From the NCBI RefSeq assembly GCF_051474125.1, contig NZ_CP150338.1:9350583-9414582 (forward strand): a DNA stretch of 64,000 nt, given 5' to 3'. Below the pieces are notes generated by a model. That model made no database searches and had not been told where the DNA came from. It saw only the letters and a list, made by a program, of their open reading frames with translations. Below are positions 13,794 through 33,164 of the stretch, piece by piece. The stretch's first letter is position 1, and the number at the start of each line of letters is the position of its first letter. Both the position numbers and the translations under genes were made by a program. The stretch is from Sorangium sp. So ce388 (GTDB lineage Bacteria > Myxococcota_A > Polyangia > Polyangiales > Polyangiaceae).

Positions 13794-15557
13794 ATGCCGA
13801 ATCGTCAGGGATGGATCGACGAGGAGTACAGCGGCGGGCGTGGACGCGACGAGGAGAGGTCTGGGCGAAACCAGGGTCAGCGAGGGGATGAGGGATATCG
13901 TGGCGAGCGCGGGGCCGCCGGCGATGCTAGCTACGGACATCGTGGCAATTACGAGCAAGTACTCCAGCGAGACGATCATCGCCATGCCCGAAGCGGTCAG
14001 GACGAGTTCCGTCGGTCGGATCAGCGGGAGTTCGGCGGACGCGGCTACGAGGGTGAGCTCGGCGGACGCGGCCACGAGCGCGACCAGGGCTGGCGCGGCC
14101 AAGGCGGCGAGCGCGGTCACGGTGGCGAGCGCGGCTGGGAAGGCCGGCAGGAGCGCGGCTGGGGACAGCGCGAGGACTTCGGAGGCCAGCACCACGCATC
14201 GGGTGGCCAGCGCGATGACTTCCAGCGAGGAGGTCGCGACGATCTTGGCTCCAGGCGCGGCTACGGCGGCGGCCAGGGCGGCTTCGGTGGCGGCCAGGGC
14301 GGCTTCGGCGGCGGCCAGGGCGGTCACGGCGGCCAAGGTCACTTCGGCGGCGGCCAGGGCAGCTACGGCGGCCAAGGCAGCTTCGGCGGCGGCCAAGGCG
14401 GTTACAGCGGCGGCCAGGGCGGATTCGGCGGCGGCCAGGGCGGCTTCGGTGGCGGCCAGGGCGGCTTCGGTGGTCAGGGTGGATACGGCGGCAGCCAGGG
14501 CGGCTATGGAGGTCAGGGCACCTTCGGCGGCCAGGGCGGATTCACCGGCGGCCAGGGCGGCTACGGCGGCAGCCAGGGCGGCCAGGGCGGCCAGGGCTAT
14601 TTCGGCAGCGAGCATGAGCTCGGCGGCGGCCGGGGTGGTCATGGCGGGCAGGGTGGATTCGGCGGCAGCCAGGGCGGCTACGGCGGCGGCCAGAGCAACT
14701 TCGGCGGTCAGGGTGGATTCGGCGGCAGCCAGGGCGGCTACGGCGGCGGCCAGAGCAGCTTCGGCGGTCAGGGTGGATTCGGCGGCAGCCAGGGCGGCTA
14801 TGGCGGCGGCCAGGGTAGCTTCGGCGGCCAGGGTGGATTCGGTGGCCAGGGTGGATCTGGTGGCAGCCAGGGCGGCTTCGGTGGCCAGGGAGGCTTCGGC
14901 GGAGGCCAGCACCAGGGCTACGGAGTCCGCGGCGGCCTCCGGCAGTGGGCCGACGACGAGCGCGGCTGGACCGAGCGTTCCGGGCAGCAGCGCGGCTACG
15001 AGGGACAGGGATTCCGCGGCGATCAGGGCTCTTACCCCCAGTCGGGTGGGCAGGGCTTCGGCGGTCAGGGCCACCAGTCCGGCGGACGGAGCTTCCTCGA
15101 TACCGTTGGGCAGGGTGGAGGAGTCGGCGGTTCGCGCGGTCGCGCGCCCAAGGGCTACAAGCGCTCGGACGACCGGATTCGCGAGGACATCTGCGACCAG
15201 ATCTCCGAGCACCCGGACCTCGACGCGAGCGACGTCGAGGTGAAGGTCCAGAACGGCGAGGTCGTCCTCTCCGGGACCGTCCGCGAGCGCCGCTTCAAGC
15301 ACCAGCTCGAGTCGCTCGCGGAGCGGATCTCGGGCGTGAACGACGTGCGGAACGAGATCCGGATGTACCGAGAGCAGCAGCAGGGCGAGGCGAAGACGGG
15401 CTCCGGGCTCTCGTCGGGCGAGCGCTCCACCGCGTCCGGCACCACCGGGGGCCTCTCCGGCTCCACGGCGGGCGCTTCCGGCACCGCGACCTCCGTCGGC
15501 GCCACGTCGTCGTCGGAGACGAAGAACAACGAGTCGTCGCGCCGTAACGCCTCGTAG
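13794..15557 (+). CDS. Glycine-rich low-complexity protein with about 40 GGQGGFGG repeats and a C-terminal BON domain.
   Basis: ATG at 13794 with an AGGCGGAGGAG SD. It has an R/E/D/G-rich N-terminus, a 24-nt tandem coding repeat across ~14270-14900, and a C-terminal BON-like block (DASDVEVKVQNGEVVLSGTV....LAERISGVNDVRNEI). Confidence 0.65.
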   Translation: MPNRQGWIDEEYSGGRGRDEERSGRNQGQRGDEGYRGERGAAGDASYGHRGNYEQVLQRDDHRHARSGQDEFRRSDQREFGGRGYEGELGGRGHERDQGWRGQGGERGHGGERGWEGRQERGWGQREDFGGQHHASGGQRDDFQRGGRDDLGSRRGYGGGQGGFGGGQGGFGGGQGGHGGQGHFGGGQGSYGGQGSFGGGQGGYSGGQGGFGGGQGGFGGGQGGFGGQGGYGGSQGGYGGQGTFGGQGGFTGGQGGYGGSQGGQGGQGYFGSEHELGGGRGGHGGQGGFGGSQGGYGGGQSNFGGQGGFGGSQGGYGGGQSSFGGQGGFGGSQGGYGGGQGSFGGQGGFGGQGGSGGSQGGFGGQGGFGGGQHQGYGVRGGLRQWADDERGWTERSGQQRGYEGQGFRGDQGSYPQSGGQGFGGQGHQSGGRSFLDTVGQGGGVGGSRGRAPKGYKRSDDRIREDICDQISEHPDLDASDVEVKVQNGEVVLSGTVRERRFKHQLESLAERISGVNDVRNEIRMYREQQQGEAKTGSGLSSGERSTASGTTGGLSGSTAGASGTATSVGATSSSETKNNESSRRNAS

Positions 15558-19793: not shown

Positions 19794-19830
19794 ACCGCCC
19801 CGTACTGGCGGCGCACGTCAGGAGACGCAC

Positions 19831-21360
19831 ATGAGAAAGAGCACCGCGGCGACCTTGGTCCTCCTGCTGTCCCCGTGGGCGATCGGCTGCGGAACTGCGC
19901 CCGGCGTGAACGACCCTGGCGTGACGCCTTGTGAAGGCACCTCGTGCGAGGACGAGCCGCCCCCGGAGTCGGTCTGCGTCGAGCACGTCGCCGCCGATAT
20001 CCTCGACGACGGCTGCGGCGTATTCGTCGCTGGAGCCTTGGGTGGGGGCGACGACAGGAACCCCGGCACGAAGGCGAAGCCGGTGTTCACCGTCGAGCGC
20101 GCCGTCGAGCTCGCGCGCACTGGACGAGGGCGCGTGTTCATCTGCAATGACGGATTCGTTGTGCATCAGATCAGGATGCCCTCCGGCGTGGACCTCCTCG
20201 GGGGCTTCGACTGCCGGAAATGGGTCCGCAGCGATCTGCCCAAGCGGTCCTCGTTTTCTCACGAGCGGGTCTTCGGCCCCATGGTGATCGTCGAACCCGC
20301 GGGGCCCGAGGACAGGGGGGCCGCGGACGGGGTATCGACGCTCGCCGATCTCTACGTTCGCTCGTGGGGCCCGGTCGGCGTGCTCGTTCAGTCGGGCACG
20401 GCGGTGGAGATCCTTCGGAGCGAGATCTCCGCCAGCGTAGGGGATGGAAACGGACACGGCGAGAAGTGGCCGACCACGCAACCGGACGGACCGGATGGCA
20501 TGTTCGGTGGGGACGCGTGCTCGGCGACCGTCGTCGCTGGCGGGCCTGCGGCCGTGAACCGGTGCGAGAGCGGGCTCACGAGCATCGGTGGCAAGGGAGG
20601 CGACGGGCTGCCCGACAGCGCCGAGGATGGAGACGATGGGGAGCCCGCCGACCTTTTGCCAGCCGCACGCGGTGGTAGCGGGGAGCGGGACAACCTCAGT
20701 TGCAGCAGCGGATCCGAGGGCGGCCCGGGGGCTCCGGGAACACAGGGCGCCCCCAGCAAGGGCATCGGGCGCCTCACCGAGACAGGATGGAAGGGCGACA
20801 CGGGCGGCGAGGGGACCTGGGGCACGCCGGGCCAGGGCGGCGGCGGCGGCGGCGGTCGCCGGGGCGGGCTCGCCGTGTGCGGCGTGGCCTCGAAGGGTGG
20901 CCCAGGAGGAGGCTCGGGAGGGGCCGGCGGTTGCGGAGGCCGCGGAGGCCGCGGGGGAGCGAACGGACAGCCGTCCATCGGCGTCCTCGCGCTTCACGCC
21001 CGAGTGACCGTGCGCGACACCAAGATCACGGCGGACGCTGGCGGCAACGGCGGCGACGGCGGGGAACCCCAGGACGGCGGCCGAGGCGGCCGCGGCGCAC
21101 CGGGCGGAACGCTGGGGGATGAGCTCGCCGCCTGCTTCGGCGGTCGGGGCGGCCAAGGAGGGCCCGGCGGCTACGGCGGACCCGGGCGCGGCGGCGACTC
21201 GATCGGCATCGCCTACATCGACGAGGACCAGCTCACGCTCGAGGGCGTCACCATCGAGACCGGGCAACCGGGCAAGGGCGGCACGAGCTGGAACTACGAT
21301 GGCAGCACGACGGTTGGAGAGAGCGGCGAGGCCCACGAGACGCTTCGCTTTCCGGAATAG
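19831..21360 (+). CDS. Lipoprotein Z2, paralogue of Z1 with a beta-helix module and Gly-rich C-terminus.
   Basis: ATG at 19831 after an AGGAGACG SD. Signal/lipobox MRKSTAATLVLLLSPWAIGC. Shares the CGVFVAGALGGGDDRNPGTKAKPVFTVERAV motif. Its last ~555 nt are repeated at 24606..25155. Confidence 0.65.
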   Translation: MRKSTAATLVLLLSPWAIGCGTAPGVNDPGVTPCEGTSCEDEPPPESVCVEHVAADILDDGCGVFVAGALGGGDDRNPGTKAKPVFTVERAVELARTGRGRVFICNDGFVVHQIRMPSGVDLLGGFDCRKWVRSDLPKRSSFSHERVFGPMVIVEPAGPEDRGAADGVSTLADLYVRSWGPVGVLVQSGTAVEILRSEISASVGDGNGHGEKWPTTQPDGPDGMFGGDACSATVVAGGPAAVNRCESGLTSIGGKGGDGLPDSAEDGDDGEPADLLPAARGGSGERDNLSCSSGSEGGPGAPGTQGAPSKGIGRLTETGWKGDTGGEGTWGTPGQGGGGGGGRRGGLAVCGVASKGGPGGGSGGAGGCGGRGGRGGANGQPSIGVLALHARVTVRDTKITADAGGNGGDGGEPQDGGRGGRGAPGGTLGDELAACFGGRGGQGGPGGYGGPGRGGDSIGIAYIDEDQLTLEGVTIETGQPGKGGTSWNYDGSTTVGESGEAHETLRFPE

Positions 21361-21403
21361 CCGCGGTCACGTCACGGAAGGACGGCGCAGATCTCCGCGA
21401 CGG

Positions 21404-22513
21404 CTATGAGTATGAGGAGGCGCCAGAATCCGCGTCGCCGAGCCAGCTATCGAGGAAGCACGAGGCCCAGGCGACCATGGCGGCCGGCGGCGCGCCCTGA
21501 CCGTCCCACGAAGCGACCAGCGCCTCGAGCTCGCGGATGGCAGCTTCGAGCTCGCGCTTGGAAGCGACTCCGCGCGGAGTCTTCGGCGGATCCATGAGCA
21601 CCCGAGTTTTTGCAAGCACGCTCAATATTTCCTCTTTGCGCAGGACCCCATCTGTTGTCACCCCCCCGAAGAAGGCGCCCTGCGCCTCTGGCATCAGGCT
21701 CCACAAGATGTTGTAGAGCGCCGCCAGTACCTTGAGGACTGCAACGAATCTTCCTGTCAGGTTGCTCGCATCAACGTCTACGCCAGGTGTCCGCACTTCA
21801 CCTGGCGAAGCGGGCACCCATTCCTGACCGACCGTAAAGAAGCAGTCGTAGAGTCTAGCCTCCCCGACGGTCCGCAAGTTCACCGTCACGTCCGGCACGA
21901 GCACGACGCCGACCTCAGGCGGCATGCGTTCACAACCGAAGGTCGCTTCGATATCGCGGGCTATCCACTCTACGTACGGCAGTTCGTCGGCCGATAGCTC
22001 GAAGTCGATGTACGACTCATTGAACGTGACACTCATTAGCCTTTCCTCATCCGAATTTGACACGAGCTCCGGATCGCGCGGACTTCGTGAGATGAAGAAG
22101 TTTATACCACCAAAGACAACCCTGAATCTCTCTGGCTGCCTCACAAACTGGACCAGGCGATAGCCATAGACAATATAGTAAGGAACGAGGAAACTAATTT
22201 TAAACCACAGCGTTCGGCCGTTGGCTGCGCTTGGTAGAGAAAACGAAAAAGAGTAGCAAGCGTCCAAGGACCCCGTAGGCAGGTGGAACGAATCGTTCAT
22301 GACAGCGCAATCAGGGAATCGCTCTTCGATCCGACGCAGCAACGCAGGCCAACGTTCGTCCGCTGCCGCGCGTCGCCGCGCGGCCACTAGACGGCCGTAC
22401 TCCTCGGTTTCCTTGTAGCGCTGAATGTCGTCTTGCTCGATCCCGTCAATCCCACGTGGGTGATATCTGTGGACAACGTCCAGCAGATCTCTAACACTGT
22501 GCTTCATAGCCAT
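21404..22513 (-). CDS. X1: cytoplasmic protein of unknown function (~370 aa). Candidate cognate/immunity partner of Y and paralogue of X2.
   Basis: No signal peptide. About 50% aa identity to X2 (25167..26282) over the full length. Low-GC (~48-52%) DNA. Start taken at MAMKHSV with an AAGGCGGA SD. Confidence 0.5.
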   Translation of the reverse strand: MAMKHSVRDLLDVVHRYHPRGIDGIEQDDIQRYKETEEYGRLVAARRRAAADERWPALLRRIEERFPDCAVMNDSFHLPTGSLDACYSFSFSLPSAANGRTLWFKISFLVPYYIVYGYRLVQFVRQPERFRVVFGGINFFISRSPRDPELVSNSDEERLMSVTFNESYIDFELSADELPYVEWIARDIEATFGCERMPPEVGVVLVPDVTVNLRTVGEARLYDCFFTVGQEWVPASPGEVRTPGVDVDASNLTGRFVAVLKVLAALYNILWSLMPEAQGAFFGGVTTDGVLRKEEILSVLAKTRVLMDPPKTPRGVASKRELEAAIRELEALVASWDGQGAPPAAMVAWASCFLDSWLGDADSGASSYS

Positions 22514-22615
22514 ACCGCTTCCGCCTTGAGTTCGGGCGCGAATGTTCCCCCCCCCTTTTCCGTCCCATCCCTGCCTCCTATTGACCTCGGGGGCGTCCAA
22601 GGATGCAGGGAAGGA

Positions 22616-23338
22616 TCAATTCATGAGCCTGGCACCTAGGCCCCTGTAATTTTCATCCTTCTCAAACCGTTGGCGCATCTCAGTCTTGAATTTCTCGCAG
22701 AATATACCAGGTGGAAGATCGGTAAGCCCTTCTTTGTAAAACCTTTCAGCTATCTGATTCGCCAGATCGGAACTGATGAACGCTGCCCTCTCCGCCGAGA
22801 TCTCTCCCCAAGCCCGACTTCGTAATGGCATCCCGATGTGAACCGTGCACGCGTCGACGCCTCGGTCACCTCGTCTGAACACTAACCCCGCCTTCGCTTC
22901 CTGCCAACCACCTGCGACGGTCCCGTCGTAAGCTACGATGGTGACAAAATTGAACTCCGACGGTCCGAATACCTAAATGTTGCAACCCATTTGCGGAGAG
23001 CCGCTCTGCTGGCATGGGTCTGTCGGGCTCGTCGGGCTGGCAGTCGGCCTATCCGAGCTGTCGCTCGGGCGTTCCTCTTCCTCTCCGTCTTCATCCTCCG
23101 TTTTGTTGCACTGGATCTTCTCCTTCTTGCCATCCTGCGGGCCTTCTGGCGGCTCCGCCCCGAAGGCCCCCGATGCGCCGGAGCTGAAGACGGGAACGGG
23201 CGGCCCGACGGGTCCACCTCCCCCCTCACCCTTCTCCCACTCCTCTCGGGGATAGCAGTCTCCCACCGTCCAGTTGCACGCCGATAGCACCCAGACGGCG
23301 ACAGCCACAACCAGCAGCAGACTTCTTTTTGCGTTCAT
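22616..23338 (-). pseudogene. Y1: lipoprotein gene disrupted by an in-frame TAG. The N-terminal 122 codons are identical to Y2 and the C-terminal domain is diverged.
   Basis: MNAKRSLLLVVAVAVWVLSAC... is identical to Y2 up to the linker. The reading then runs ...MGCNI-stop(TAG)-VFGPSEFNFVTIVAYDG..., continuing as ORF 22616..22882. That ORF is homologous (~45%) to the Y2 C-terminal domain. Confidence 0.5.
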
Positions 23339-23868
23339 TTTGCACCCCATCGAAGCACGGGACCGGCGGCGACAAGCACCGACCAATGACCTGGAAGCAC
23401 AAGGCTGCTCCCGCCGACCCAGTCCACATTGGCGCTCACCGACACGCCGAGCGGTCCGGCGACGTACGCGTTGGCTTGCGCATGCGCGCCCACCGCCATC
23501 CCGGCGACGCGCCCGCACAAGGCGCTGCCGCACGCCGGCATGAAGTAGATCGCGGGTGATGGCCCCGCGCTGACATCGCCGCTCTTCCACGCGTACCCGA
23601 CCGCGACGGACGTGTGATTGTACACGCCGGCCCCACCGATCTGGATGGGCGGCACGACGCTGCACAGATCGTGAACCCTGAACAGGAGCTCTCTCGTGAT
23701 GTGCCACGATATCCCCGCGTTCGGTCCCACCGTGAGGCGCCGAGCGGTGCCGGCCTGGATCCACCCGACACCCACGCCGGTGCTCAGCTCGGCCGCCTCC
23801 ACCTGCGCCGGAACGAGCGCGAGAGCGACCATCGCCGCCGATGGGAGCCGCCGGGATGTCGTCCTCAT
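23335..23868 (-). CDS. W1: small secreted protein (177 aa) with a signal peptide. It is Gly-rich and possibly an outer-membrane beta-barrel-like accessory protein.
   Basis: Signal peptide MRTTSRRLPSAAMVALALVPAQVEA. Alternating hydrophobic patterns are visible. It is identical to W2 and its stop overlaps the Y start. Confidence 0.5.
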   Translation of the reverse strand: MRTTSRRLPSAAMVALALVPAQVEAAELSTGVGVGWIQAGTARRLTVGPNAGISWHITRELLFRVHDLCSVVPPIQIGGAGVYNHTSVAVGYAWKSGDVSAGPSPAIYFMPACGSALCGRVAGMAVGAHAQANAYVAGPLGVSVSANVDWVGGSSLVLPGHWSVLVAAGPVLRWGAK

Positions 23869-24124
23869 CGCCTCCTTTCGCCTCCCAGCAACAGCCGAGC
23901 AACGTGACGGCGCGAGCCATTCTTCGGAATGTGGAATTGGGCGTCAAACGGAAACTGGGCGAGAACATCGCAATGGACGTGGGCAACCGTCCGAGGCGTG
24001 CACTGTTGCGCGCCCACCTGCGCGGCGCGAGTGCTTGCCAGCTCGATCACCGCGCTCGACCGGGACGCCGAGTGGCGATGGGGATCTGCCCAAGCCAGAA
24101 GGACCACGCGGTAAGAAGCGCCCT

Positions 24125-24605
24125 CCCCTCCTGCAGACCGGCCGCCCTCCTGCGCAACCTCGCCGTCCGCCTGCGCAGACCGGCCGCTCCTCCTGCGCAG
24201 GTCCGCCGCCCGCCAACACAGACCCGCCGCCTCTGCTGCGCCCCCCCGCCGCCCGCCTGCGCAGACCGGCCGCCCCTCCTGCGCAGCCCCGCCGCCCGCC
24301 TGCGCAAACCGGCCGCCCCTCCTGCGCAGCCCCGCCGCCCCTCCTGCGCAGCCCCGCCGCCCGCCTGCGCAAACCGGCCGCCCCTCCTGCGCAGCCCCGC
24401 CGCCCTCCTGTGCACCTGATTTCGTGAACTACGCTACAGTCGCGCGCCCCCTGCGCGGTCCGTTCTGTACCCTACACAACAAAATTGCGGCTCCTGCGCA
24501 GCCCCGCCGCCCTCCTGCGCCGCTCGTCGCCCCCTCCTGCGCACCCCCGCCGCCTTCCTGCGCAACCCAGCCCTCCTCCTGCGCAGCCCTTTCCGCGGGC
24601 GGCGA
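24125..24605. repeat. Array A: about 17 degenerate 21-22 bp direct repeats with a conserved CCTGCGCA core, plus a unique ~70-bp insert.
   Basis: Units such as cctgcgcagccccgccgcccg / cctgcgcaaaccggccgcccct recur with a two-helical-turn period. TGCGCA is palindromic. A unique AT-richer island (24413-24482: ...gatttcgtgaactacgctacagtcgcg...) sits inside. The array lies upstream of W1. Confidence 0.7.
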
Positions 24606-25155
24606 GGGGACCTGGGGCACGCCGGGCCAGGGCGGCGGCGGCGGCGGCGGTCGTCGGGGCGGGCTCGCCGTATGCGGCGTGGCCTCGAAGGGTGGCCCAG
24701 GAGGAGGCTCGGGAGGTGCCGGCGGTTGCGGAGGCCGAGGAGGCCGCGGGGGAGCGAACGGACAGCCGTCCATCGGCGTCCTTGCGCTTCACGCCCGGGT
24801 GACCGTGCGCGACACCAAGATCACGGCGGACGATGGCGGCTACGGCGGCGACGGCGGGGAACCCCAGGACGGCCGCCGAGGCGGCCGAGGCGCACCGGGC
24901 GGAATGCCGGAGGATGAACTCGTCGCGTGTTACGGCGGCCGGGGCGGCCAAGGAGGGCCCGGCGGCTACGGCGGACCCGGGCGCGGCGGCGACTCGATCG
25001 GCGTCGCCTACATCGACGAGGACCAGCTCACGCTCGAGGGCGTCACCATCGAGACCGGACGGCCGGGCGAGGGCGGCACGAGCTGGAACTACGACGGAAG
25101 CACGACGGTGGGAGAGAGCGGCGAGGCCCACGAGACGCTTCGCTTTCCGGAATAG
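24606..25155 (+). pseudogene. Z': 3' fragment of a Z2-like beta-helix lipoprotein gene (C-terminal ~183 codons only).
   Basis: About 95% nt identity to 20806..21360, including the stop. The ORF-track N-terminus (24424..24605) is translated repeat array, not a credible protein start. Confidence 0.55.
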
Positions 25156-25166
25156 CCGAAGTCACG

Positions 25167-26282
25167 TCATGGGAGATCGGCGCGGAGATCGGCGACCGAG
25201 TCCACGGGCCAACTCGCCAGGAAGCTGGAGGCCCAAGCGACCATGGCGGCCGGCGGCTCGCCTTCACCGTCCCACGAAGCGACCAGCGCTTCGAGCTCGC
25301 GCTTGGCCGCCATGGCGCGGAGAGTCTTCGGTGATTCGTCGTGCGGACGCATGCGCGCAAGCTCCTCCAGCATCTTGTCCTTGTGCAGGAAGCCGTCTGT
25401 AGACGCCGACCAATAAAGCCCAAACGACTGTCGATATGGCTCAGGCAACTTCAGAATCATCCTGGGCAAATCGAGCAGCATTCCGATCTGGTAGTGCGCC
25501 CGGAGCACGGTAAGCACCCCAATAAACCGAGCTGTCAAGCTGCTCGACTCAAGCGTCACGACCGCTCCTCGCTCTGGCGGCGACGGTTCCACCCACTGAC
25601 TATCTATGGTAAAAAGACAATCGTACAACGTCGCACCGCGCATGCCAACCACCACGCCCGGCACGAGAGTGGTACCGACCTCTGGTGGCATGGGCTCGCA
25701 ACCGAAGGTCGACTCGATGTCATGGGCGATCCACGTCGCGCAAGGCCGCTCGTCCGGCGCCAGATCGAAGGTGAGCTCATGCCGGGTGACGGTCGCGCTA
25801 TGTAGCCTCTCATCATACGGGTTCAGTACGAGATCGGGCCCCAGAGCACTTCGTGGAATGGAAAAATTGATACCATACGGAACCACGAAGCCGGCAGGCG
25901 GCCTAACAAGATCGATCATGCGATAGCTGTATACGACATAGTACGGAGCCAGAAAACTCACGTGAAACCAAAGCGTTCGACGGTCGGGTGCGTTCGGCAG
26001 ATCGACCGTGAACGAATAACACGCGTCACAGGCTCCGGCGGGCAGGTGAAGTGATCGGTTCATGAGTAGCACGTCAGGGAATCGCTCTGATATGCGACGT
26101 CGCATGGCATGCCAGCGTTCGTCCTTCGATGCTTGGATCCGCGCAGCGACGAGCCGAGCGTGTTCTTCAGTCTGTTCGCGCTGGGAGTCGTCCTGCCAAA
26201 ATTGGTTCGGGTCGGGACCGCCGATCCCACGGGGGAAATACCGGTAGACGACGTCCAGTAGTTGACCGACCGTGTGCTTCAT
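25167..26282 (-). CDS. X2: cytoplasmic protein of unknown function (371 aa), candidate immunity/cognate partner of Y2.
   Basis: Starts with the ATGA overlap on the Y2 stop (translational coupling). Low-GC DNA. About 50% identical to X1. Confidence 0.55.
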   Translation of the reverse strand: MKHTVGQLLDVVYRYFPRGIGGPDPNQFWQDDSQREQTEEHARLVAARIQASKDERWHAMRRRISERFPDVLLMNRSLHLPAGACDACYSFTVDLPNAPDRRTLWFHVSFLAPYYVVYSYRMIDLVRPPAGFVVPYGINFSIPRSALGPDLVLNPYDERLHSATVTRHELTFDLAPDERPCATWIAHDIESTFGCEPMPPEVGTTLVPGVVVGMRGATLYDCLFTIDSQWVEPSPPERGAVVTLESSSLTARFIGVLTVLRAHYQIGMLLDLPRMILKLPEPYRQSFGLYWSASTDGFLHKDKMLEELARMRPHDESPKTLRAMAAKRELEALVASWDGEGEPPAAMVAWASSFLASWPVDSVADLRADLP

Positions 26283-26992
26283 GACTTGTTGACCACCACA
26301 CCAAGTTTCTTGTATTGCTCCGCGAACGTATTCTTTACGTTCGTGAAAAACTCTGAGCAGAATATGCCAGGTGGCAGCGCAAAACGACCCGCCCTCTCCA
26401 TCTCACCTGCGACCATATTTGTCACTTCAGCGCTGTACATTGCCGCATTGTCAGCCGATATACCCCCCCAAAGGTGATTTCTTATAGGCATTCCAATGCG
26501 AAGAAAACACGCTGCTACGCCATCTTCTAGGTAGATGATCAATCCTGACTTTGCCTCCTGCCAACCACCTGCCACATCAGCCCCATCGTCGGCGACGATC
26601 GTGACAAACTTGAAATCAGACGGGCCGAACCGCTTACTTGCGCACCCCATGGTCGGAGCGCCGCTCTGCTGGCAGGGGTCCGGCGGGCTCGTCGGGCTGG
26701 CAGTCGGCCTATCCGAGCTGTCGCTCGGGCTTTCCTCTCCGTCTTCATCCTCCGTTTTGTTGCACTGGATCTTCTCCTTCTTGCCATCCTGCGGGCCATC
26801 TGGCGGCTCCGCCCCGAAGGCCCCCGATGCGCCGGAGCTGAAGACGGGAACGGGCGGCCCGACGGGTCCACCTCCCCCCTCACCCTTCTCCCACTCCTCT
26901 CGGGGATAGCAGTCTCCCACCGTCCAGTTGCACGCCGATAGCACCCAGACGGCGACAGCCACAACCAGCAGCAGACTTCTTTTTGCGTTCAT
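26279..26992 (-). CDS. Y2: intact lipoprotein (237 aa) with a signal peptide and lipobox, a G/P/S/acidic linker and a ~110-aa variable C-terminal domain. Candidate polymorphic toxin.
   Basis: MNAKRSLLLVVAVAVWVLSAC (LSAC lipobox). The start overlaps the W2 stop (ATGA). The C-terminal domain is FGPSDFKFVTIVADDG...LPPGIFCSEFF in ~50% GC DNA. The ORF-track upstream extension (to 27640) is an artefact. Confidence 0.55.
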   Translation of the reverse strand: MNAKRSLLLVVAVAVWVLSACNWTVGDCYPREEWEKGEGGGGPVGPPVPVFSSGASGAFGAEPPDGPQDGKKEKIQCNKTEDEDGEESPSDSSDRPTASPTSPPDPCQQSGAPTMGCASKRFGPSDFKFVTIVADDGADVAGGWQEAKSGLIIYLEDGVAACFLRIGMPIRNHLWGGISADNAAMYSAEVTNMVAGEMERAGRFALPPGIFCSEFFTNVKNTFAEQYKKLGVVVNKS

Positions 26993-27522
26993 TTTGCACC
27001 CCATCGAAGCACGGGACCGGCGGCGACAAGCACCGACCAATGACCTGGAAGCACAAGGCTGCTCCCGCCGACCCAGTCCACATTGGCGCTCACCGACACG
27101 CCGAGCGGTCCGGCGACGTACGCGTTGGCTTGCGCATGCGCGCCCACCGCCATCCCGGCGACGCGCCCGCACAAGGCGCTGCCGCACGCCGGCATGAAGT
27201 AGATCGCGGGTGATGGCCCCGCGCTGACATCGCCGCTCTTCCACGCGTACCCGACCGCGACGGACGTGTGATTGTACACGCCGGCCCCACCGATCTGGAT
27301 GGGCGGCACGACGCTGCACAGATCGTGAACCCTGAACAGGAGCTCTCTCGTGATGTGCCACGATATCCCCGCGTTCGGTCCCACCGTGAGGCGCCGAGCG
27401 GTGCCGGCCTGGATCCACCCGACACCCACGCCGGTGCTCAGCTCGGCCGCCTCCACCTGCGCCGGAACGAGCGCGAGAGCGACCATCGCCGCCGATGGGA
27501 GCCGCCGGGATGTCGTCCTCAT
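26989..27522 (-). CDS. W2: small secreted protein identical to W1.
   Basis: Identical translation to 23335..23868. First gene of the W-Y-X operon. Confidence 0.5.
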   Translation of the reverse strand: MRTTSRRLPSAAMVALALVPAQVEAAELSTGVGVGWIQAGTARRLTVGPNAGISWHITRELLFRVHDLCSVVPPIQIGGAGVYNHTSVAVGYAWKSGDVSAGPSPAIYFMPACGSALCGRVAGMAVGAHAQANAYVAGPLGVSVSANVDWVGGSSLVLPGHWSVLVAAGPVLRWGAK

Positions 27523-27778
27523 CGCCTCCTTTCGCCTCCCAGCAACAGCCGAGCAACGTGACGGCGCGAGCCATTCTTCGGAATGTGGAATTGGGCGTCA
27601 AACGGAAACTGGGCGAGAACATCGCAATGGACGTGGGCAACCGTCCGAGGCGTGCACTGTTGCGCGCCCACCTGCGCGGCGCGAGTGCTTGCCAGCTCGA
27701 TCACCGCGCTCGACCGGGACGCCGAGTGGCGATGGGGATCTGCCCAAGCCAGAAGGACCACGCGGTAAGAAGCGCCCT

Positions 27779-28340
27779 CCCCTCCTGCAGACCGGCCGCC
27801 CTCCTGCGCAACCTCGCCGTCCGCCTGCGCAGACCGGCCGCTCCTCCGCTCCTCCTGCGCAGGTCCGCCGCCCGCCAACACAGACCCGCCGCCTCTGCTG
27901 CGCCCCCCCGCCGCCCGCCTGCGCAGACCGGCCGCCCCTCCTGCGCAGCCCCGCCGCCCGCCTGCGCAAACCGGCCGCCCCTCCTGCGCAGCCCCGCCGC
28001 CCCTCCTGCGCAGCCCCGCCGCCCGCCTGCGCAAACCGGCCGCCCCTCCTGCGCAGCCCCGCCGCCCTCCTGTGCACCTGATTTCGTGAACTACGCTACA
28101 GTCGCGCGCCCCCCTGCGCAGTCCGTTCTGTACCCTGCACAACAAAATTGCGGCTCCTGCGCAGCCCCGCCGCCCTCCTGCGCCGCTCGTCGCCCCCTCC
28201 TGCGCACCCCCGCCGCCTTCCTGCGCAACCCAGCCCTCCTCCTGCGCAGCCCTTTCTGTGTCCTGCGCAACCCCCGCCCCCCTCCTGCGCAGCCCTTTCT
28301 GTGTCCTGCGCAACACTTCCCCCTCCTGCGCATCCCCCCC
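27779..28340. repeat. Array B: about 26 copies of the CCTGCGCA-core 21-22 bp repeat, a longer version of array A.
   Basis: The first ~330 bp are identical to array A including the AT-richer island (28070-28140). Extra units at 28150-28340 (cctgcgcagccctttctgtgt... variants) follow. Confidence 0.7.
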
Positions 28341-28562
28341 GCCAGCCCCATGGCCCGCTGCTCGCTGCGCGCGCCCGGCACGCCGCCCCGCTCGACTCCG
28401 CGGCACACCACCTCTCTCAACCTCTTAAGCCAGGTACATCCTCGTGACGTGAACGAAACGTGCTCTCTTCTGGCTCATGCCTTAAACCGCCAATACCCTC
28501 GCCGATTCTCCGGCCCCTCAATCCGAGGGGCGCTGGCCCCGACAAGGAGGCGTATCTTTCGC

Positions 28563-29552
28563 ATGGCAACGAAGGCATCCACCACCACGGCATCAGCGAT
28601 CAACAGGGCTGCGAAGAAGCGCGCTTCACGCGAGGCGCAGGGCGCGCCTCGCTCCTCTCCCAGAGAAGCAGCGTACACGCTCAGCGCCGCCCGGGAGGCC
28701 GAGCTCGTCCGAGAGGCCGAGTCACTCGGCGACAACACACTGTATTTTCCCGGCAAGCTCGCCCGGCGCGTCATCTGGGCGAGCCGTATCCAGCTCGCCG
28801 CCGAGCGCGACTCGGCGGATCTCGTCCGCACCCCCTTCCCCGACGACGAGCCGCCGCTCACCCGCGACGAGATCCACGGGCTCCGCGACAAGATCGAGCT
28901 CCTGCGCATCACCCAATCGCGCTGGCAAGCCGCGCAGCAGCGCCAGGAGCGGGCCGCCGCGACCTTCGCGAAGCCAGCCGCCGAGGCCGCCGTTCACCGG
29001 CAAACGCTCCTCCGCTTCTTCGACCTCCGCTTCAAGAAGAGCGCCGAGGGTCAAAAGCGGCTCATGGCCATCCGCGCGGGCAACGGCGACGCGGATCTGG
29101 TCCAGGACGTCTCCGACCTGCTCTTGCTGTGCTCCGAGCACGCCGAGGCCATCGACAAGGCACCTCGCGGCGAGGCCGCCGCCGTGGCCCGCCTCCGCGA
29201 GCTCTCGCCGCTGCTCGCGCGCATGCTCGCCGACAAGACGCTCTCCCCCGAGGCGCTGCGCTCGCGCAAGCTCCGCGACGCCGCGTACACGCTCGTCGTG
29301 AACGCCGAGCGAAGGCTGCGCGCCGCCGCGGAGTACTGGTACGCCGGCACGGACAAGACGAAAGACTACGCGCCTTTCCCCGTCTCCCGCGGCGCCGCGT
29401 CCACCGGAGGAGAAGAGGAAGGCGAGGCCGGCGCGGAGGACGACGGCGCGCTGGACGAGGACGAAACGGATGGCGGCGCGCCCAACGAGGGCGATGAGCA
29501 AGATGAGGCGCCGGAAGACGTCACCCCCGGTGAGGACGAGGACGAGCGATGA
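28563..29552 (+). CDS. Hypothetical helical protein with a highly acidic C-terminal tail.
   Basis: ATG at 28563 (MATKASTTT...). No signal peptide. Ends in E/D-rich ...EDDGALDEDETDGGAPNEGDEQDEAPEDVTPGEDEDER. The upstream part of the ORF-track ORF (27495..) is translated repeat array. Confidence 0.45.
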   Translation: MATKASTTTASAINRAAKKRASREAQGAPRSSPREAAYTLSAAREAELVREAESLGDNTLYFPGKLARRVIWASRIQLAAERDSADLVRTPFPDDEPPLTRDEIHGLRDKIELLRITQSRWQAAQQRQERAAATFAKPAAEAAVHRQTLLRFFDLRFKKSAEGQKRLMAIRAGNGDADLVQDVSDLLLLCSEHAEAIDKAPRGEAAAVARLRELSPLLARMLADKTLSPEALRSRKLRDAAYTLVVNAERRLRAAAEYWYAGTDKTKDYAPFPVSRGAASTGGEEEGEAGAEDDGALDEDETDGGAPNEGDEQDEAPEDVTPGEDEDER

Positions 29553-29926: not shown

Positions 29927-30784
29927 ATGGCCGAGGTGCTCGCCGCGTCGCTGCTGTTCCCTGCCGTGCTCTTCACGGTCGTGCTCGCGCTCGCCCTCAT
30001 CTACTGGCTGTTCGTGCTCCTCGGCGCGCTCGACCTCGACCTGCTCGGCGGCGCCCATGGCGACGCCGCGCCCGACCTCGGCGCGCTGCCAGGCGCCGCC
30101 AAGGGCGCGCTCGAGGGCGCCGCCAAGGGCGCGCTCGAAGGCGCCGCCAAGGGCGCCGCGGAGGGCCTCGCCGACGGGGGCGACGGCGCCGACGGCGTCG
30201 GCTCGGTGCTCGTCGCGCTGCAGCTCCACCGCGTGCCCGCGACCGTGACGATCACGCTGATCGCGACGTTCGGCTGGTTCACCAGCGCCCTGTCCACGAT
30301 GCTCGCCGAGCCGGCCTGGGTCGGCGCCGGGCTGCCGCGCTGGGCGCTCGGCCTCGCGGTGCTCGCGGGGTCGCTCACCGTCGCCGTCCTCTTGACCTCG
30401 CTGGCGGTGCGGCCGCTCGGCCCGCTGTTCGTGACCCGCCACGCCACGTCGAAGAAGGACCTCGTCGGCCGCGTGTGCGTCATCTCCACCGGGCGCGTCG
30501 ACGAGCGCTTCGGCCAGGCGGTCATCGACGAGGGCGGCGCGAGCCACATCCTCGACGTGCGCAGCGACACGCCCGGCGCCCTCCGCCGCGGCGACCGCGC
30601 GCTGCTGGTGAGCTGGGACCCGGGCGGCGAGGTCTTCAGCGTCGAGCCGCTCGACGCCCTGCTGGGCCCGCCGCCGCCCCTCGCCGAGCGCGTTGCGTCC
30701 CCCGCGGAAGCCTCGCCGCGCGACGTCGAGGCCGACGACGCCCCCACAGCAGGCGACAGGGAAGCGCGCCAGCGCCGCAGCTGA
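29927..30784 (+). CDS. NfeD/YqiJ-like membrane protein (DUF1449-like): N-terminal TM helices plus a C-terminal OB-fold.
   Basis: N-terminal hydrophobic helices are followed by a C-terminal beta-rich soluble block (GRVCVISTGRVDERFGQAVIDEGGASHILDVRSD). It lies immediately upstream of a flotillin gene, the typical yqiJ-yqiK arrangement. Confidence 0.7.
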   Translation: MAEVLAASLLFPAVLFTVVLALALIYWLFVLLGALDLDLLGGAHGDAAPDLGALPGAAKGALEGAAKGALEGAAKGAAEGLADGGDGADGVGSVLVALQLHRVPATVTITLIATFGWFTSALSTMLAEPAWVGAGLPRWALGLAVLAGSLTVAVLLTSLAVRPLGPLFVTRHATSKKDLVGRVCVISTGRVDERFGQAVIDEGGASHILDVRSDTPGALRRGDRALLVSWDPGGEVFSVEPLDALLGPPPPLAERVASPAEASPRDVEADDAPTAGDREARQRRS

Positions 30785-30944
30785 ACGCCGCTGGCGCGCT
30801 GGCGGTTTCGTGTACGCTCTCCCCCGAGGGGGCATCGTGCGGCCCCCTATCCGGCTCAGGTCTGTGCGCCTGACCCTCGCTCACGCGGAAGCGGGCGCGG
30901 GGGCCGGCGCCCTCCCCTCGCCGGACAACGCGAAGGAGCTCCGC

Positions 30945-33164
30945 GTGCCCACTCTGACCGTCCCCCTCATCATCGCCCTCGTCGGTGTCCTCGCCTTCGT
31001 CACCTTCGGGATGCTGGTCATGTACGCCAAGTTCTACCGCCAGGTGGATCAGGGCAAGGCGCTGATCATCAACACGAGAGGCGAAGATCCCATCGTCACC
31101 TTCACCGGGACGCTGGTGATCCCGATCATCCACCGCGCCGAGTACATGGATATCTCGGTCAAGACGATCGAGATCGACCGGCGCGGCAAGGAGGGCCTCA
31201 TCTGCAAGGACAACATCCGCGCGGACATCAAGGTCACCTTCTTCGTGCAGGTGAACAAGACGCAGGACGACGTGCGCACGGTCGCCCGGACCATCGGCTG
31301 CGTCCGCGCGTCGAACCCGGAGACGCTCGAGCAGCTCTTCGCCGCGAAGTTCTCCGAGGCGCTGAAGACCGTGGGCAAGCGCCTGAACTTCGAGGACCTC
31401 TACAAGGAGCGGCAGAAGTTCAAGGACGACATCCTCGACGTCATCGGCAAGGACCTGAGCGGGTTCGTGCTCGCCGACGCGGCGATCGACTACCTGGAGC
31501 AGACGCCCGTCGAGCTGCTCGACAAGGACAACATCATGGATGCCGAGGGCATCCGGAAGATCACCGAGCTCACGGTCGCGCAGAACGTGCTCACGAACGA
31601 GCTCCGCCAGAAGGAGCGGATGGAGATCGGCAGCCAGAACCTGAACTCCGACGAGGCCGTCTTCCGCTTCGAGCAGCGCCGGGCCGAGGCCGAGGCGAAG
31701 AAGGCGAAGGAGATCGCGGTGGCGCAGGCGCGCGAGCAGAACGAGGCCGCGCGCATCACCAGCGAGGAGCGCAAGAAGACGGTGCTCCTCCAGGAGAAGA
31801 ACGACGAGGAGGCCTTCATCGCCCGCGAGGCGAAGGAGCGCGGCGTCTCCGTCGCCCAGAAGAACAAGGAGCGGGAGGTCGCCGTCGAGACCGAGCGGGT
31901 CGAGAAGGCGCGGCAGCTCGAGATCGTGAGCCGCGAGCGCGACGTGGCGCTCCAGCAGATCGCCCGCGAGAAGGAGCTGGAGCTCCAGCGCAAGGACATC
32001 GCCGACGTGGTCCGGGCGCGGATCGCGGTCGAGAAGACGGTGGCCGAGGAGGAGGAGCGGATCAAGGACGTGCGCGCCGTGGCCGAGGCGACGCGCCTCA
32101 AGGACGTGACGCGCATCAACGCCGAGGCCGAGGCGCAGGAGCAGCTCGTCAAGCACATCAAGGGCGCCGAGGCGAGCGAGGAGGCGGCGAAGTTCCGGGC
32201 GCGCGAGAAGCTCATCACGGCCGACGCCGAGCTCGAGGCGAGCGACAAGGCCGCGCGCGCGAAGATCCGGATCGCCGAGGGCGTGCAGGCCGAGTCCGCG
32301 GCCGAGGGGCTGGCGCGCATCCGCGTGAAGGAGGCCGACGCGCAGGCGATCGAGAAGCAGGGGTTCGCCGAGGCGCGCGTGGCGCTCGAGAAGATGAACG
32401 CCGCCGCCGTCGGCGAGGAGAAGCAGGGCCTCGCGCGGGTGCTCGTGAAGGAGGCGGAGGCGCAGGCGATCGAGAAGCAGGGGCGCGCCGAGGCGCTCGT
32501 CGCCCGGGAGCGGCTCCTCGCCGAGGCCGCCGGCATCGAGCAGAAGGGGCTCGCGGCCGCGAGGACGCGCGAGGCCGAGGCGCTGGCCGTGGAGAAGACG
32601 GGCCTCGCCGAGGCGACGGCGATCAAGCAGCGGCTGCTGGCCGAGGCCGCGGGCACGGCGGAGAAGGCGGCGGCCATGAAGGCGCTCGACGGCGTCGGGC
32701 GCGAGCACGAGGAGTTCCGTCTCCGGCTCGAGAAGGAGCGGGCGGTGGAGCTCGAGTCGCTGCGCATCCGGGCCGAGATCGCGCGGGCGCAGGCCGAGAT
32801 CCTGCGGGGCGCGTTCGAGCAGGCGAAGATCAACATCGTGGGCGGCGACGGGGCGTTCTTCGACCGCTTCGTCAAGGCGGTCACCCTCGGCCAGTCGGTC
32901 GACGGCATGGTCGACCAGAGCGCCACGGTGCGCGCGCTGGTCGGCGACTACCTGAACGGCAACGCGAGCCTCCCCGAGGACCTGAAGCAGCTCGTCACCC
33001 ACCCCGCGCCCCTCGCGCGGCCCAAGGACGGCACGCTGTCCGGAATGCTCACGTCGCTCCTGCCCGGCACCGACGACGACGGCAAGAAGAAGCTCCAGGC
33101 GCTCGCCGAGAAGGCGCGGGAGCTCGGCCTCGACGATCTCGCCCAGCGAGGCCCGCGCGCCTGA
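30945..33164 (+). CDS. Flotillin/SPFH (band 7) family protein (YqiK-like) with a long coiled-coil C-terminus.
   Basis: GTG start at 30945, 8 nt after a GAAGGAG SD. N-terminal TM helix. SPFH core (…IINTRGEDPIVTFTGTLVIPIIHRAEYMDISVKTIEI…). The C-terminus is rich in EAEAQAIEKQG/AEA repeats. Confidence 0.85.
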   Translation: MPTLTVPLIIALVGVLAFVTFGMLVMYAKFYRQVDQGKALIINTRGEDPIVTFTGTLVIPIIHRAEYMDISVKTIEIDRRGKEGLICKDNIRADIKVTFFVQVNKTQDDVRTVARTIGCVRASNPETLEQLFAAKFSEALKTVGKRLNFEDLYKERQKFKDDILDVIGKDLSGFVLADAAIDYLEQTPVELLDKDNIMDAEGIRKITELTVAQNVLTNELRQKERMEIGSQNLNSDEAVFRFEQRRAEAEAKKAKEIAVAQAREQNEAARITSEERKKTVLLQEKNDEEAFIAREAKERGVSVAQKNKEREVAVETERVEKARQLEIVSRERDVALQQIAREKELELQRKDIADVVRARIAVEKTVAEEEERIKDVRAVAEATRLKDVTRINAEAEAQEQLVKHIKGAEASEEAAKFRAREKLITADAELEASDKAARAKIRIAEGVQAESAAEGLARIRVKEADAQAIEKQGFAEARVALEKMNAAAVGEEKQGLARVLVKEAEAQAIEKQGRAEALVARERLLAEAAGIEQKGLAAARTREAEALAVEKTGLAEATAIKQRLLAEAAGTAEKAAAMKALDGVGREHEEFRLRLEKERAVELESLRIRAEIARAQAEILRGAFEQAKINIVGGDGAFFDRFVKAVTLGQSVDGMVDQSATVRALVGDYLNGNASLPEDLKQLVTHPAPLARPKDGTLSGMLTSLLPGTDDDGKKKLQALAEKARELGLDDLAQRGPRA

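Follow-up and report, generated by a model that had tools for sequence, protein, structure and literature searches.

The repeats described here resemble known systems such as plasmid iterons, partition centromeres and the Nla28 enhancer sites of Myxococcus xanthus. Iterons of the pSC101, R6K, RK2 and pPS10 type are direct repeats of ~17-22 bp phased at ~22 bp, and partition centromeres such as R1 parC, pSK41 parC and F sopC are long head-to-tail arrays, F sopC being an array of 12 x 43 bp. Sites for the enhancer-binding protein Nla28 of Myxococcus xanthus (phylum Myxococcota) are tandem direct repeats of the half-site consensus CT(C/G)CG(C/G)AG, in clusters of 3-5 with spacers mostly <25 bp (PMC7910581, PMC9765219). 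Here we describe two arrays of 21- and 22-bp direct repeats, array A and array B, in a 64,000-nucleotide stretch of the Sorangium sp. So ce388 genome (contig NZ_CP150338.1, positions 9,350,583 to 9,414,582 of the forward strand; hereafter the window). Array B lies beside a gene that we call R, and arrays of the same architecture accompany homologues of R across the Polyangiaceae. We propose, with a probability of about 45%, that the array is a cis-element of ancient origin that moves together with R, with a predicted role as a phased, multi-site platform for protein binding.

An earlier note on this DNA, made from the letters alone, had drawn attention to the two arrays, and both are real. The window has a GC content of ~72%, and CCTGCGCA occurs in it 37 times on the two strands together; shuffled sequences hold 5.6 +/- 2.3 copies, 0 of 100 shuffles reach 37, and 35 of the 37 copies lie inside the two arrays. 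Tandem Repeats Finder (TRF) agrees, with periods of 21, 22, 43 and 65 bp at 24125-24589 and 27787-28343. In our unit parse array A (24130-24593, + strand) covers ~470 bp, with 14 perfect cores on the + strand in ~22 unit slots, and array B (27784-28346, + strand), the complete array, covers 563 bp, with 19 perfect cores of the form CCTGCGCA(G) in ~26-27 slots; the note's coordinates and its counts of 17 and 26 units were roughly right. The unit spacing alternates between 21 and 22 bp, so that two units make up a super-unit of 43 bp and the period averages 21.5 bp. With this alternation the proposed phasing at two helical turns holds, and an iteron-like binding array is a reasonable reading of it. 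The consensus units in Sorangium are CCTGCGCAGCCyCGGCGCCCT (21 bp) and CCTGCGCAGCCCCGGCGGCCCT (22 bp). The + strand of the array consists of 53% C, 23% G, 10% A and 13-14% T, and the C-rich strand of array B is the sense strand of R. Both arrays contain the AT-richer island that had been reported, at 28069-28155 (+ strand) in array B, where its double units are degenerate yet stay in the 43-bp phase, and at 24407-24492 (+ strand) in array A as its counterpart. A hidden Markov model (HMM) of the 43-bp double unit detected no further relics within the window.

Gene R (28563-29552, + strand; 329 aa) is the conserved partner of the array, with array B 217 bp upstream of it. Searched for three phased cores, the GTDB species genomes gave at least 120 loci, with same-family arrays in at least nine Sorangium genomes. 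So ce56, So0157-2, So ce176 and So ce1000 each carry an array of this family, its embedded islands included, directly upstream of an R orthologue. At L105 (So ce56) and L014 (So0157-2), tblastn and profile searches placed R immediately downstream of the array, and in So ce176 (L129) and So ce1000 (L130), whose R loci were fetched independently, the array is 210-240 bp upstream of R. The array locus of So ce375 (L077) shares its upstream kinase-macro gene with L130, and its sequence ends just before R; that of So ce726 (L024) likewise ends before R. In So ce1335 (L055) the array is still followed by the beginning of the conserved spacer, and R appears to have been lost. Homology between strains is limited to the array, the spacer and R, as both outer flanks differ in nearly every strain. 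Across strains, the comparison that the note had called for, array length at the Sorangium R loci ranges from ~250 to 600 bp; unit variants are homogenised within each array, and the core positions of the unit are far more conserved than the remaining positions.

The association extends to distant homologues of R. We examined 14 loci of the R family and found a 21/22/43-bp array within ~400 bp at 12 of them, nine of these arrays upstream and three downstream, one of which is inverted. Homologues of 42-57% identity, from other Polyangiaceae and from soil metagenomes, have 21/42/43-bp arrays within 60-350 bp, whose units have drifted and carry CCAAAGG-type cores. Upstream arrays accompany P0075 (47% identity to R; a 43/21-bp array at 4556-4883 of L121, 118 bp from the R homologue), P0085 (42%; 21 bp x 9.3, GACAAAGGCCTCCTCGAACAC, in L122), P0064 (54%; 21 bp x 10, CCAAAGGTCTCCCGGGGGGCG, in L124) and P0058 (57%; a degenerate 21-bp array in which CCTCCTGCGC and CCTCCAACGC units are mixed, in L126/L127). 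P0074 (L128) and P0071 (L262) each have a 43/21-bp array just downstream, and the degenerate array of P0060 (L132) is the one that is downstream and inverted. Elsewhere in the fetched stretches of the non-Sorangium R loci (L121-L132) we did not detect any other intergenic 21/22/43-bp array of more than ~2 copies.

Unit consensus sequences were compared by a rotation and shuffle test, which joined them into a chain. The Sorangium unit matches that of L126a at 17/21 positions (p=0.001), and L126b matches L121 at 16/21 (p<0.0005). Matches of 16/21 were also found for L121 with L124, for L124 with L262 and for L124 with the reverse complement of L132. Compared directly, the Sorangium units and the CCAAAGG-type units show no significant similarity; both core types occur inside the single array of L126. 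Most likely, as judged from these alignments, the R-associated arrays are homologous and have been retained beside R while their sequence drifted.

Given the conserved cores, the two-turn period, the high copy number, the concerted evolution and the persistence beside R on either side and in either orientation, we infer a DNA-level element of phased sites for one protein factor; the binding itself, the identity of the binder and the function of the complex are likewise inferences. The mean period of 21.5 bp would put the conserved core (CCTGCGCAG in Sorangium) on roughly one face of the helix every two turns, and many copies of one sequence-specific DNA-binding factor would assemble cooperatively on the array. 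The flexible position and orientation of the array speak for a partner site that acts as DNA, and less for an RNA element or one tied to a promoter. A site that remains next to a gene even after relocation is typically the cognate site of the protein encoded there. Since the array stays beside R whether upstream, downstream or inverted, R or a complex containing R is the most economical candidate for the factor, which might bind through an unrecognised fold and a basic N-terminal tail. Such a platform could be an operator, a loading site or an iteron-like array. Within the window, array B would be the functional copy and array A a truncated by-product of a segmental duplication.

Several observations weigh against this proposal. 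Two R loci lack an array, namely that of a Sorangium paralogue of R (L125) and that of P0070 (L131). Conversely, some Sorangium arrays lie away from R: those of L027 and L094, between convergent BCKDH-E2 and ECF-sigma genes, that of L087, upstream of a ParA-like open reading frame (ORF), and that of L056. Also, 21-bp tandem repeats that hold any given 7-8-mer are common in public data, so periodicity alone is not diagnostic. A metagenome scan for three CCAAAGG cores in phase returned at least 120 loci, with no R among the matches listed; the dominance of period 21 in that scan is probably due to coding repeats. In synteny comparisons the L027/L094 array locus shows only weak paralogy to the window. 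The ParA/MinD-like ATPase ORF of L087 (6361-7286, So ce1000) has a KGGVGKTT Walker A motif, is split by a frameshift and starts ~300 bp downstream of a same-family array, off the R locus.

The R protein is 100% identical to a Sorangium sp. So ce388 protein that NCBI names 'ATPase', a name for which R has no supporting domain and no P-loop. In a structure model R has a basic, disordered N-terminal tail, a confident all-helical bundle at about residues 40-270 and an acidic C-terminal tail. Profile searches gave no match to Pfam, NCBIfam, PADLOC, PHROGs or PDB sequences, and 38 R homologues gave only noise against Pfam, PADLOC and PHROGs. There is no recognisable canonical DNA-binding fold in R, be it winged-helix, ribbon-helix-helix (RHH) or ParB. 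Some homologues, such as P0087, have long Lys/Ala/Pro-rich N-terminal tails like those of histone H1. Close matches to R are confined to Sorangium, Polyangiaceae and soil metagenomes; the family comprises ~710 representatives by profile search, none with a Pfam domain, and has no member in IMG/VR. A look-up of a second R copy of So ce388 (P0003) gave no record. Our literature search turned up no account of the arrays or of the R family.

The spacer between array B and R (28347-28562, + strand) is conserved among the Sorangium orthologues. It contains the block GCGGCACACCACCTCTCTCAA, a ribosome-binding site (RBS) AAGGAGG at 28544-28550 and, 14 nt upstream of the RBS, a hairpin CCCCTC-AATCC-GAGGGG (28514-28530) that is kept in the Sorangium orthologues. 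A sigma54-like match, TGGCCCGCTGCTCGCT at 28351-28366, points to R with two mismatches and correctly spaced GG and GC elements, as a candidate only; the occurrence of such matches is not above chance. In So ce56 (L105, oriented 4545-4600) a mini-repeat, CCTTGCGCC x 4 with a 9-bp period, lies between array and R. The AT-richer islands of Sorangium arrays are 43-nt double units with a conserved TTGGTGTCCT motif, to which the array B island is the counterpart, more diverged here. The motif …TTGGTGTCCT(A/T)YG…AC… is strongly conserved in islands of L027 (3658-3900), L094, L105, L014, L129, L130, L055 and L024 and of the window (28069-28155 and 28241-28324), and the islands lie mostly toward the R-proximal end of the array. 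We found no covariation in support of a hairpin in the conserved islands, which have only a 4-pair consensus at -1.4 kcal/mol. The islands could serve for a second kind of binding or as part of a promoter. After R, on the same strand (29927-33164), the translations suggest by eye an NfeD/YqiJ-like membrane protein gene and an 823-aa flotillin/SPFH-like gene; this neighbourhood of R is not conserved elsewhere.

A bolder form of the proposal, which we hold to be doubtful, is that R and the array constitute an unrecognised two-part chromosomal module of the Polyangiaceae. R would be a new sequence-specific DNA-binding protein that polymerises on ~20 phased sites, protein and site would co-evolve, and secondary arrays would act as further loading sites; its role might be in chromosome organisation, in segregation or in the anchoring of variable islands carrying defence or toxin genes. 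The four-helix-bundle core and basic tail that such a reading assigns to R are reminiscent of the architecture of Dps. If the module exists, the 21/22-bp arrays with a CCTGCGCAG core in Bacteroidota and Verrucomicrobiota would hint at a much wider class of phased arrays. Sorangium has some of the largest bacterial genomes, and to our knowledge its cis-regulatory and architectural DNA is almost unstudied. An array that drifts and switches sides of its gene, yet stays with one uncharacterised gene family, offers a way into a protein-DNA system that is new to study.

A tandem segmental duplication gave rise to array A, which is array B in truncated form. Self-comparison of the window aligned 22884-24593 with 26541-28256 at 96.8% identity and 20801-21544 with 24596-25310 at 88.7%. 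Over their common part of 470 bp the arrays are 97.7% identical and differ by two substitutions, both in core positions of the island (24457 and 24474), one 8-bp indel and one 1-bp indel. By comparison, gene W and the 261-bp spacer that separates it from the array are 100% identical between copies over 795 bp. With four mutational events in the array and none in W plus spacer, the array is changing faster than its flanks. Array A lacks the ~4 last units of array B and is orphaned, as R is missing on its right. R's place beside it is taken by a truncated 3' copy (24596-25155, + strand) of a gene for a Gly-rich lipoprotein whose original is at 19828-21360. The junction, at 24593-24596, fuses a repeat unit (…CAGCCCTTTC) to the middle of this Gly-rich gene. 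The suggestion that the satellite had mediated the duplication fits one breakpoint, which falls within a unit (24593/24594), and not the other, which lies in the middle of an unrelated gene, with no microhomology at the junction. Since homology is missing there, the event was an illegitimate join and not one from repeat to repeat, and we rejected repeat-mediated homologous recombination as the cause.

The duplicated segment (20801-28256) has diverged unevenly. Beside the identity of W and its spacer, the copies agree at 90% in the 5' part of gene Y, at 89% in the Gly-rich fragment and at 65% in the X genes. Y also has different C-terminal domains in the two copies; that at 26279-26947 is intact and copy 1 stops early, at ~22973. 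This pattern looks like cassette swapping in a polymorphic toxin/immunity-like locus. Pfam and NCBIfam gave no match for W, Y, X and the Gly-rich proteins.

The earlier note had placed the arrays upstream of each W-Y-X operon and named, as one of several possible roles, the binding of a regulator of the toxin operon. This does not extend beyond the window: tblastn with the window proteins detected no W, Y or X at any other Sorangium array locus, and the partner that is conserved is R. Six other Sorangium genomes have same-family arrays in different surroundings. Array A adjoins W only because the entire segment was duplicated, and the association of the arrays with W-Y-X is specific to this strain. 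Our analysis corrects the reading of the repeats as regulators of an adjacent putative toxin operon; the array could influence W in this strain, without any conserved support for such a role. A sigma70-like promoter candidate of W that had been pointed out was recovered by our scan, with a spacer of 17 nt rather than 18 and its first hexamer at 23947-23942, a shift of one base. The candidate, TTGACG-17-AAGAAT, lies at 27573-27601 (- strand), with a twin copy at 23919-23947, and is the sole sigma70-like site in 27400-28700 (0.0 expected). Its distance to W, which lies downstream, is ~50 bp, and that to the array is ~180 bp.

Alternatively, the array may be a neutral minisatellite, that is, a functionless, slippage-prone repeat that sits beside R by shared descent alone. 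The quick concerted evolution, the homogenised unit variants and the four events between copies A and B would all be expected of such a repeat, as would the strain-to-strain variation in array length; copy number and unit variants differ between strains, as in variable-number tandem repeats (VNTRs). The abundance of 21-bp tandem arrays in public data and the persistence of both the orphan array A and the L055 remnant, where R seems to have been lost, point the same way. However, a neutral repeat should have decayed or been lost over the divergence between R proteins of 42-57% identity, whereas 12/14 loci retain an array with a period of 21-22 bp. Neutrality also fits poorly with arrays that remain with R after a switch of side or an inversion, and with cores far more conserved than the rest of the unit. 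We therefore regard this explanation as unlikely.

An RNA-level role seems rather unlikely. The array would be transcribed, as a leader of R or the 3' end of an upstream gene, and its adjacent self-complementary cores (CUGCGCAG) would form hairpins in tandem, with effects on termination, on the stability of the RNA or on the titration of a protein, in the manner of REP/BIME elements or sponge RNAs. Owing to pairing between cores, both strands do fold better than shuffled sequences (z -4.8 and -7.9), and a 43-nt super-unit suits an arrangement of stem, loop, stem and linker. The arrays away from R in L027/L094 and L056 lie between convergent genes and downstream of a co-oriented gene, and the Bacteroidota arrays with the same core are mostly between convergent genes, with T-runs. 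However, from base composition we calculate that an 8-bp palindrome is expected ~0.2 times by chance per GC-rich 21-bp unit; we dropped core palindromy as evidence of function, as an 8-bp palindrome is not rare in a GC-rich 21-mer. The CCAAAGG-type arrays of distant R loci have no conserved palindrome, the L132 array is inverted and arrays occur on either side of R. Rfam gave no match on 23000-29000 (E<=1), and the islands lack a covarying hairpin. Upstream of the array no sequence is conserved, and so there is no conserved promoter before it.

The cores might instead form an enhancer array, bound by an Nla28-like activator of the NtrC family that drives a sigma54 promoter of R, which we consider improbable. 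Here CTGCGCAG matches the Nla28 half-site consensus exactly, spacers measure 13-14 bp, and the sigma54-like match of the R spacer follows directly after array B. For such an enhancer a sigma54 promoter (GG-N10-GC, TGGCACG-N4-TTGCW) would be expected no more than ~500 bp downstream. The 8-mer match was noticed after the fact, however, and the window shows no excess of sigma54-like sites as good as this one (69 against 86 expected), with GG and GC elements kept in only 3/5 Sorangium orthologues. An array of 20-27 sites that reaches to ~20 bp from the -24 element is unlike known enhancers, and the arrays downstream of R (L128, L132 and L262) and the different cores of other lineages misfit such a role.

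Very improbable is an origin from a replicon, integrated or ancestral, whose iterons or partition centromere the array would be and whose initiator or centromere-binding protein would be R. Iterons classically take the form of direct repeats next to a gene, and a 21-22-bp phase suits this layout; the 43-bp super-unit recalls F sopC, and the L087 array precedes its frameshifted ParA-like ORF by ~300 bp. R loci are also frequently surrounded by mobile and defence genes (integrase, HsdM, IstB, a group II intron reverse transcriptase, AAA_15/DUF4276 and SNF2). Against this, none of the winged-helix, RHH and ParB folds is seen in R, neither a ParA nor a ParM gene adjoins R at any locus, and at all 14 loci R is without an NTPase gene next to it. 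At L122 the R homologue sits beside the housekeeping genes rpmF-fabH-fabD. On reading, no AT-rich unwinding region is evident near the array, only the islands of 40-50% AT, and the R family is missing from IMG/VR.

The notion that the array codes for a protein rich in Pro and Ala, or extends R at its N-terminus, draws on an ORF in frame with R that is open through array B (27495-29552), as similarly in L014, L121 and L124, and is refuted for practical purposes. Such long open frames are expected of C-rich units that have no stop codons in any frame, and the frame is closed in L105 and L122. The 21/22 alternation and the 8-bp and 1-bp indels between arrays A and B shift every frame, so that none is maintained. 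The array has much the same GC at each codon position (0.73/0.78/0.77), unlike R (0.73/0.52/0.86), and the R start (MA.K), preceded by its strong AAGGAGG RBS, is kept in all lineages. The arrays are non-coding, as the note had held. It was also right that they are not CRISPR: their contiguous 21/22-bp units differ from the 23-50 bp repeats with unique spacers of those systems, and the 13-14 nt between cores are themselves repeated. No cas genes were detected beside the arrays, neighbouring genes were without any Pfam match, and PADLOC gave nothing for R. A genuine CRISPR array (37-nt repeat …GATTGAAAC, period ~73) does occur at 57-1731 of L124, 3 kb from the R homologue and beside integrase and transposase genes. 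G-quadruplex or i-motif potential was ruled out on inspection, as other Sorangium arrays have no G3 runs.

Arrays of the same architecture were also identified outside the Myxococcota. In Bacteroidota they consist of the core CCTGCGCAG and 12-14 variable, often AT-rich bases (L004, L015, L026, L030, L036, L050, L058, L063, L075, L080, L084 and L097), and Verrucomicrobia metagenome-assembled genome (MAG) loci are built alike (L001, L029 and L041). These non-Myxococcota arrays have a 21/22 alternating or a 22-bp period in genomes of 40-46% GC, and they lie mostly between convergent ORFs where both flanking ORFs could be called. We found no R homologue and no common neighbouring gene at these loci. 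In a Lentimicrobiaceae MAG, arrays L030 and L050 have conserved flanks, as if they were in a larger dispersed element. The CCTGCGCA array pattern occurs at nine loci in IMG/VR. Other tandem repeats of the window seem to be coding and unrelated to the CCTGCGCA arrays: a Gly-rich repeat of 21-bp period x 33 (14251-14909), Gly/Ser-rich repeats of 30/45 bp in two paralogous genes (36011-36221 and 39305-39516) and 156-bp Cys-rich repeats x 7 (44787-45991).

Among known systems, plasmid iterons share with the arrays the unit length and phasing, the place next to a gene whose product is the expected binder, and a site sequence that drifts together with that gene. They differ in having 3-7 copies, against 20-27 here in a chromosomal setting. 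Moreover, R does not have the winged-helix Rep fold, the array may be downstream or inverted, and no DnaA boxes were evident on reading the sequence, which did not include a systematic DnaA-box scan. Partition centromeres are likewise long head-to-tail arrays with a flexible position relative to the partner gene, and the 43-bp super-unit with a short palindrome in each unit recalls them. In contrast to those systems, no ParA, ParM or TubZ NTPase gene lies beside R, R does not have a ParB, RHH or ParR fold, and a single Sorangium array away from R neighbours a ParA-like ORF.

The Nla28 sites of M. xanthus, from the same phylum, are comparable in their tandem direct repeats, short spacers and a core that agrees exactly with the consensus. 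Known Nla28 sites are, however, imperfect, few per cluster, often intragenic and upstream of validated sigma54 promoters, whereas the array here has at least 20 near-perfect sites, other cores at distant R loci and only a candidate sigma54 match. Minisatellites and VNTRs of the mycobacterial interspersed repetitive unit (MIRU) type are also intergenic tandem repeats that evolve in concert and vary in copy number between strains; mycobacterial MIRUs are 46-100 bp long, dispersed over ~40 loci and untied to a gene family, unlike the arrays coupled to the R family. Repetitive extragenic palindromic (REP) sequences and bacterial interspersed mosaic elements (BIMEs) resemble the arrays in that the core is a short palindrome, linkers of two lengths alternate and some copies are found where genes converge. 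They are ~35-bp imperfect palindromes of alternating orientation, RAYT-linked and present in hundreds per genome; the units here are all direct, with a C/G strand asymmetry (53% vs 23%) and no RAYT, and the matches listed give at least 1-2 array loci per Sorangium genome. Overall, the element is of a kind that resembles iterons, operators or centromere arrays, and what is new is its coupling to an uncharacterised family of helical proteins across the Polyangiaceae.

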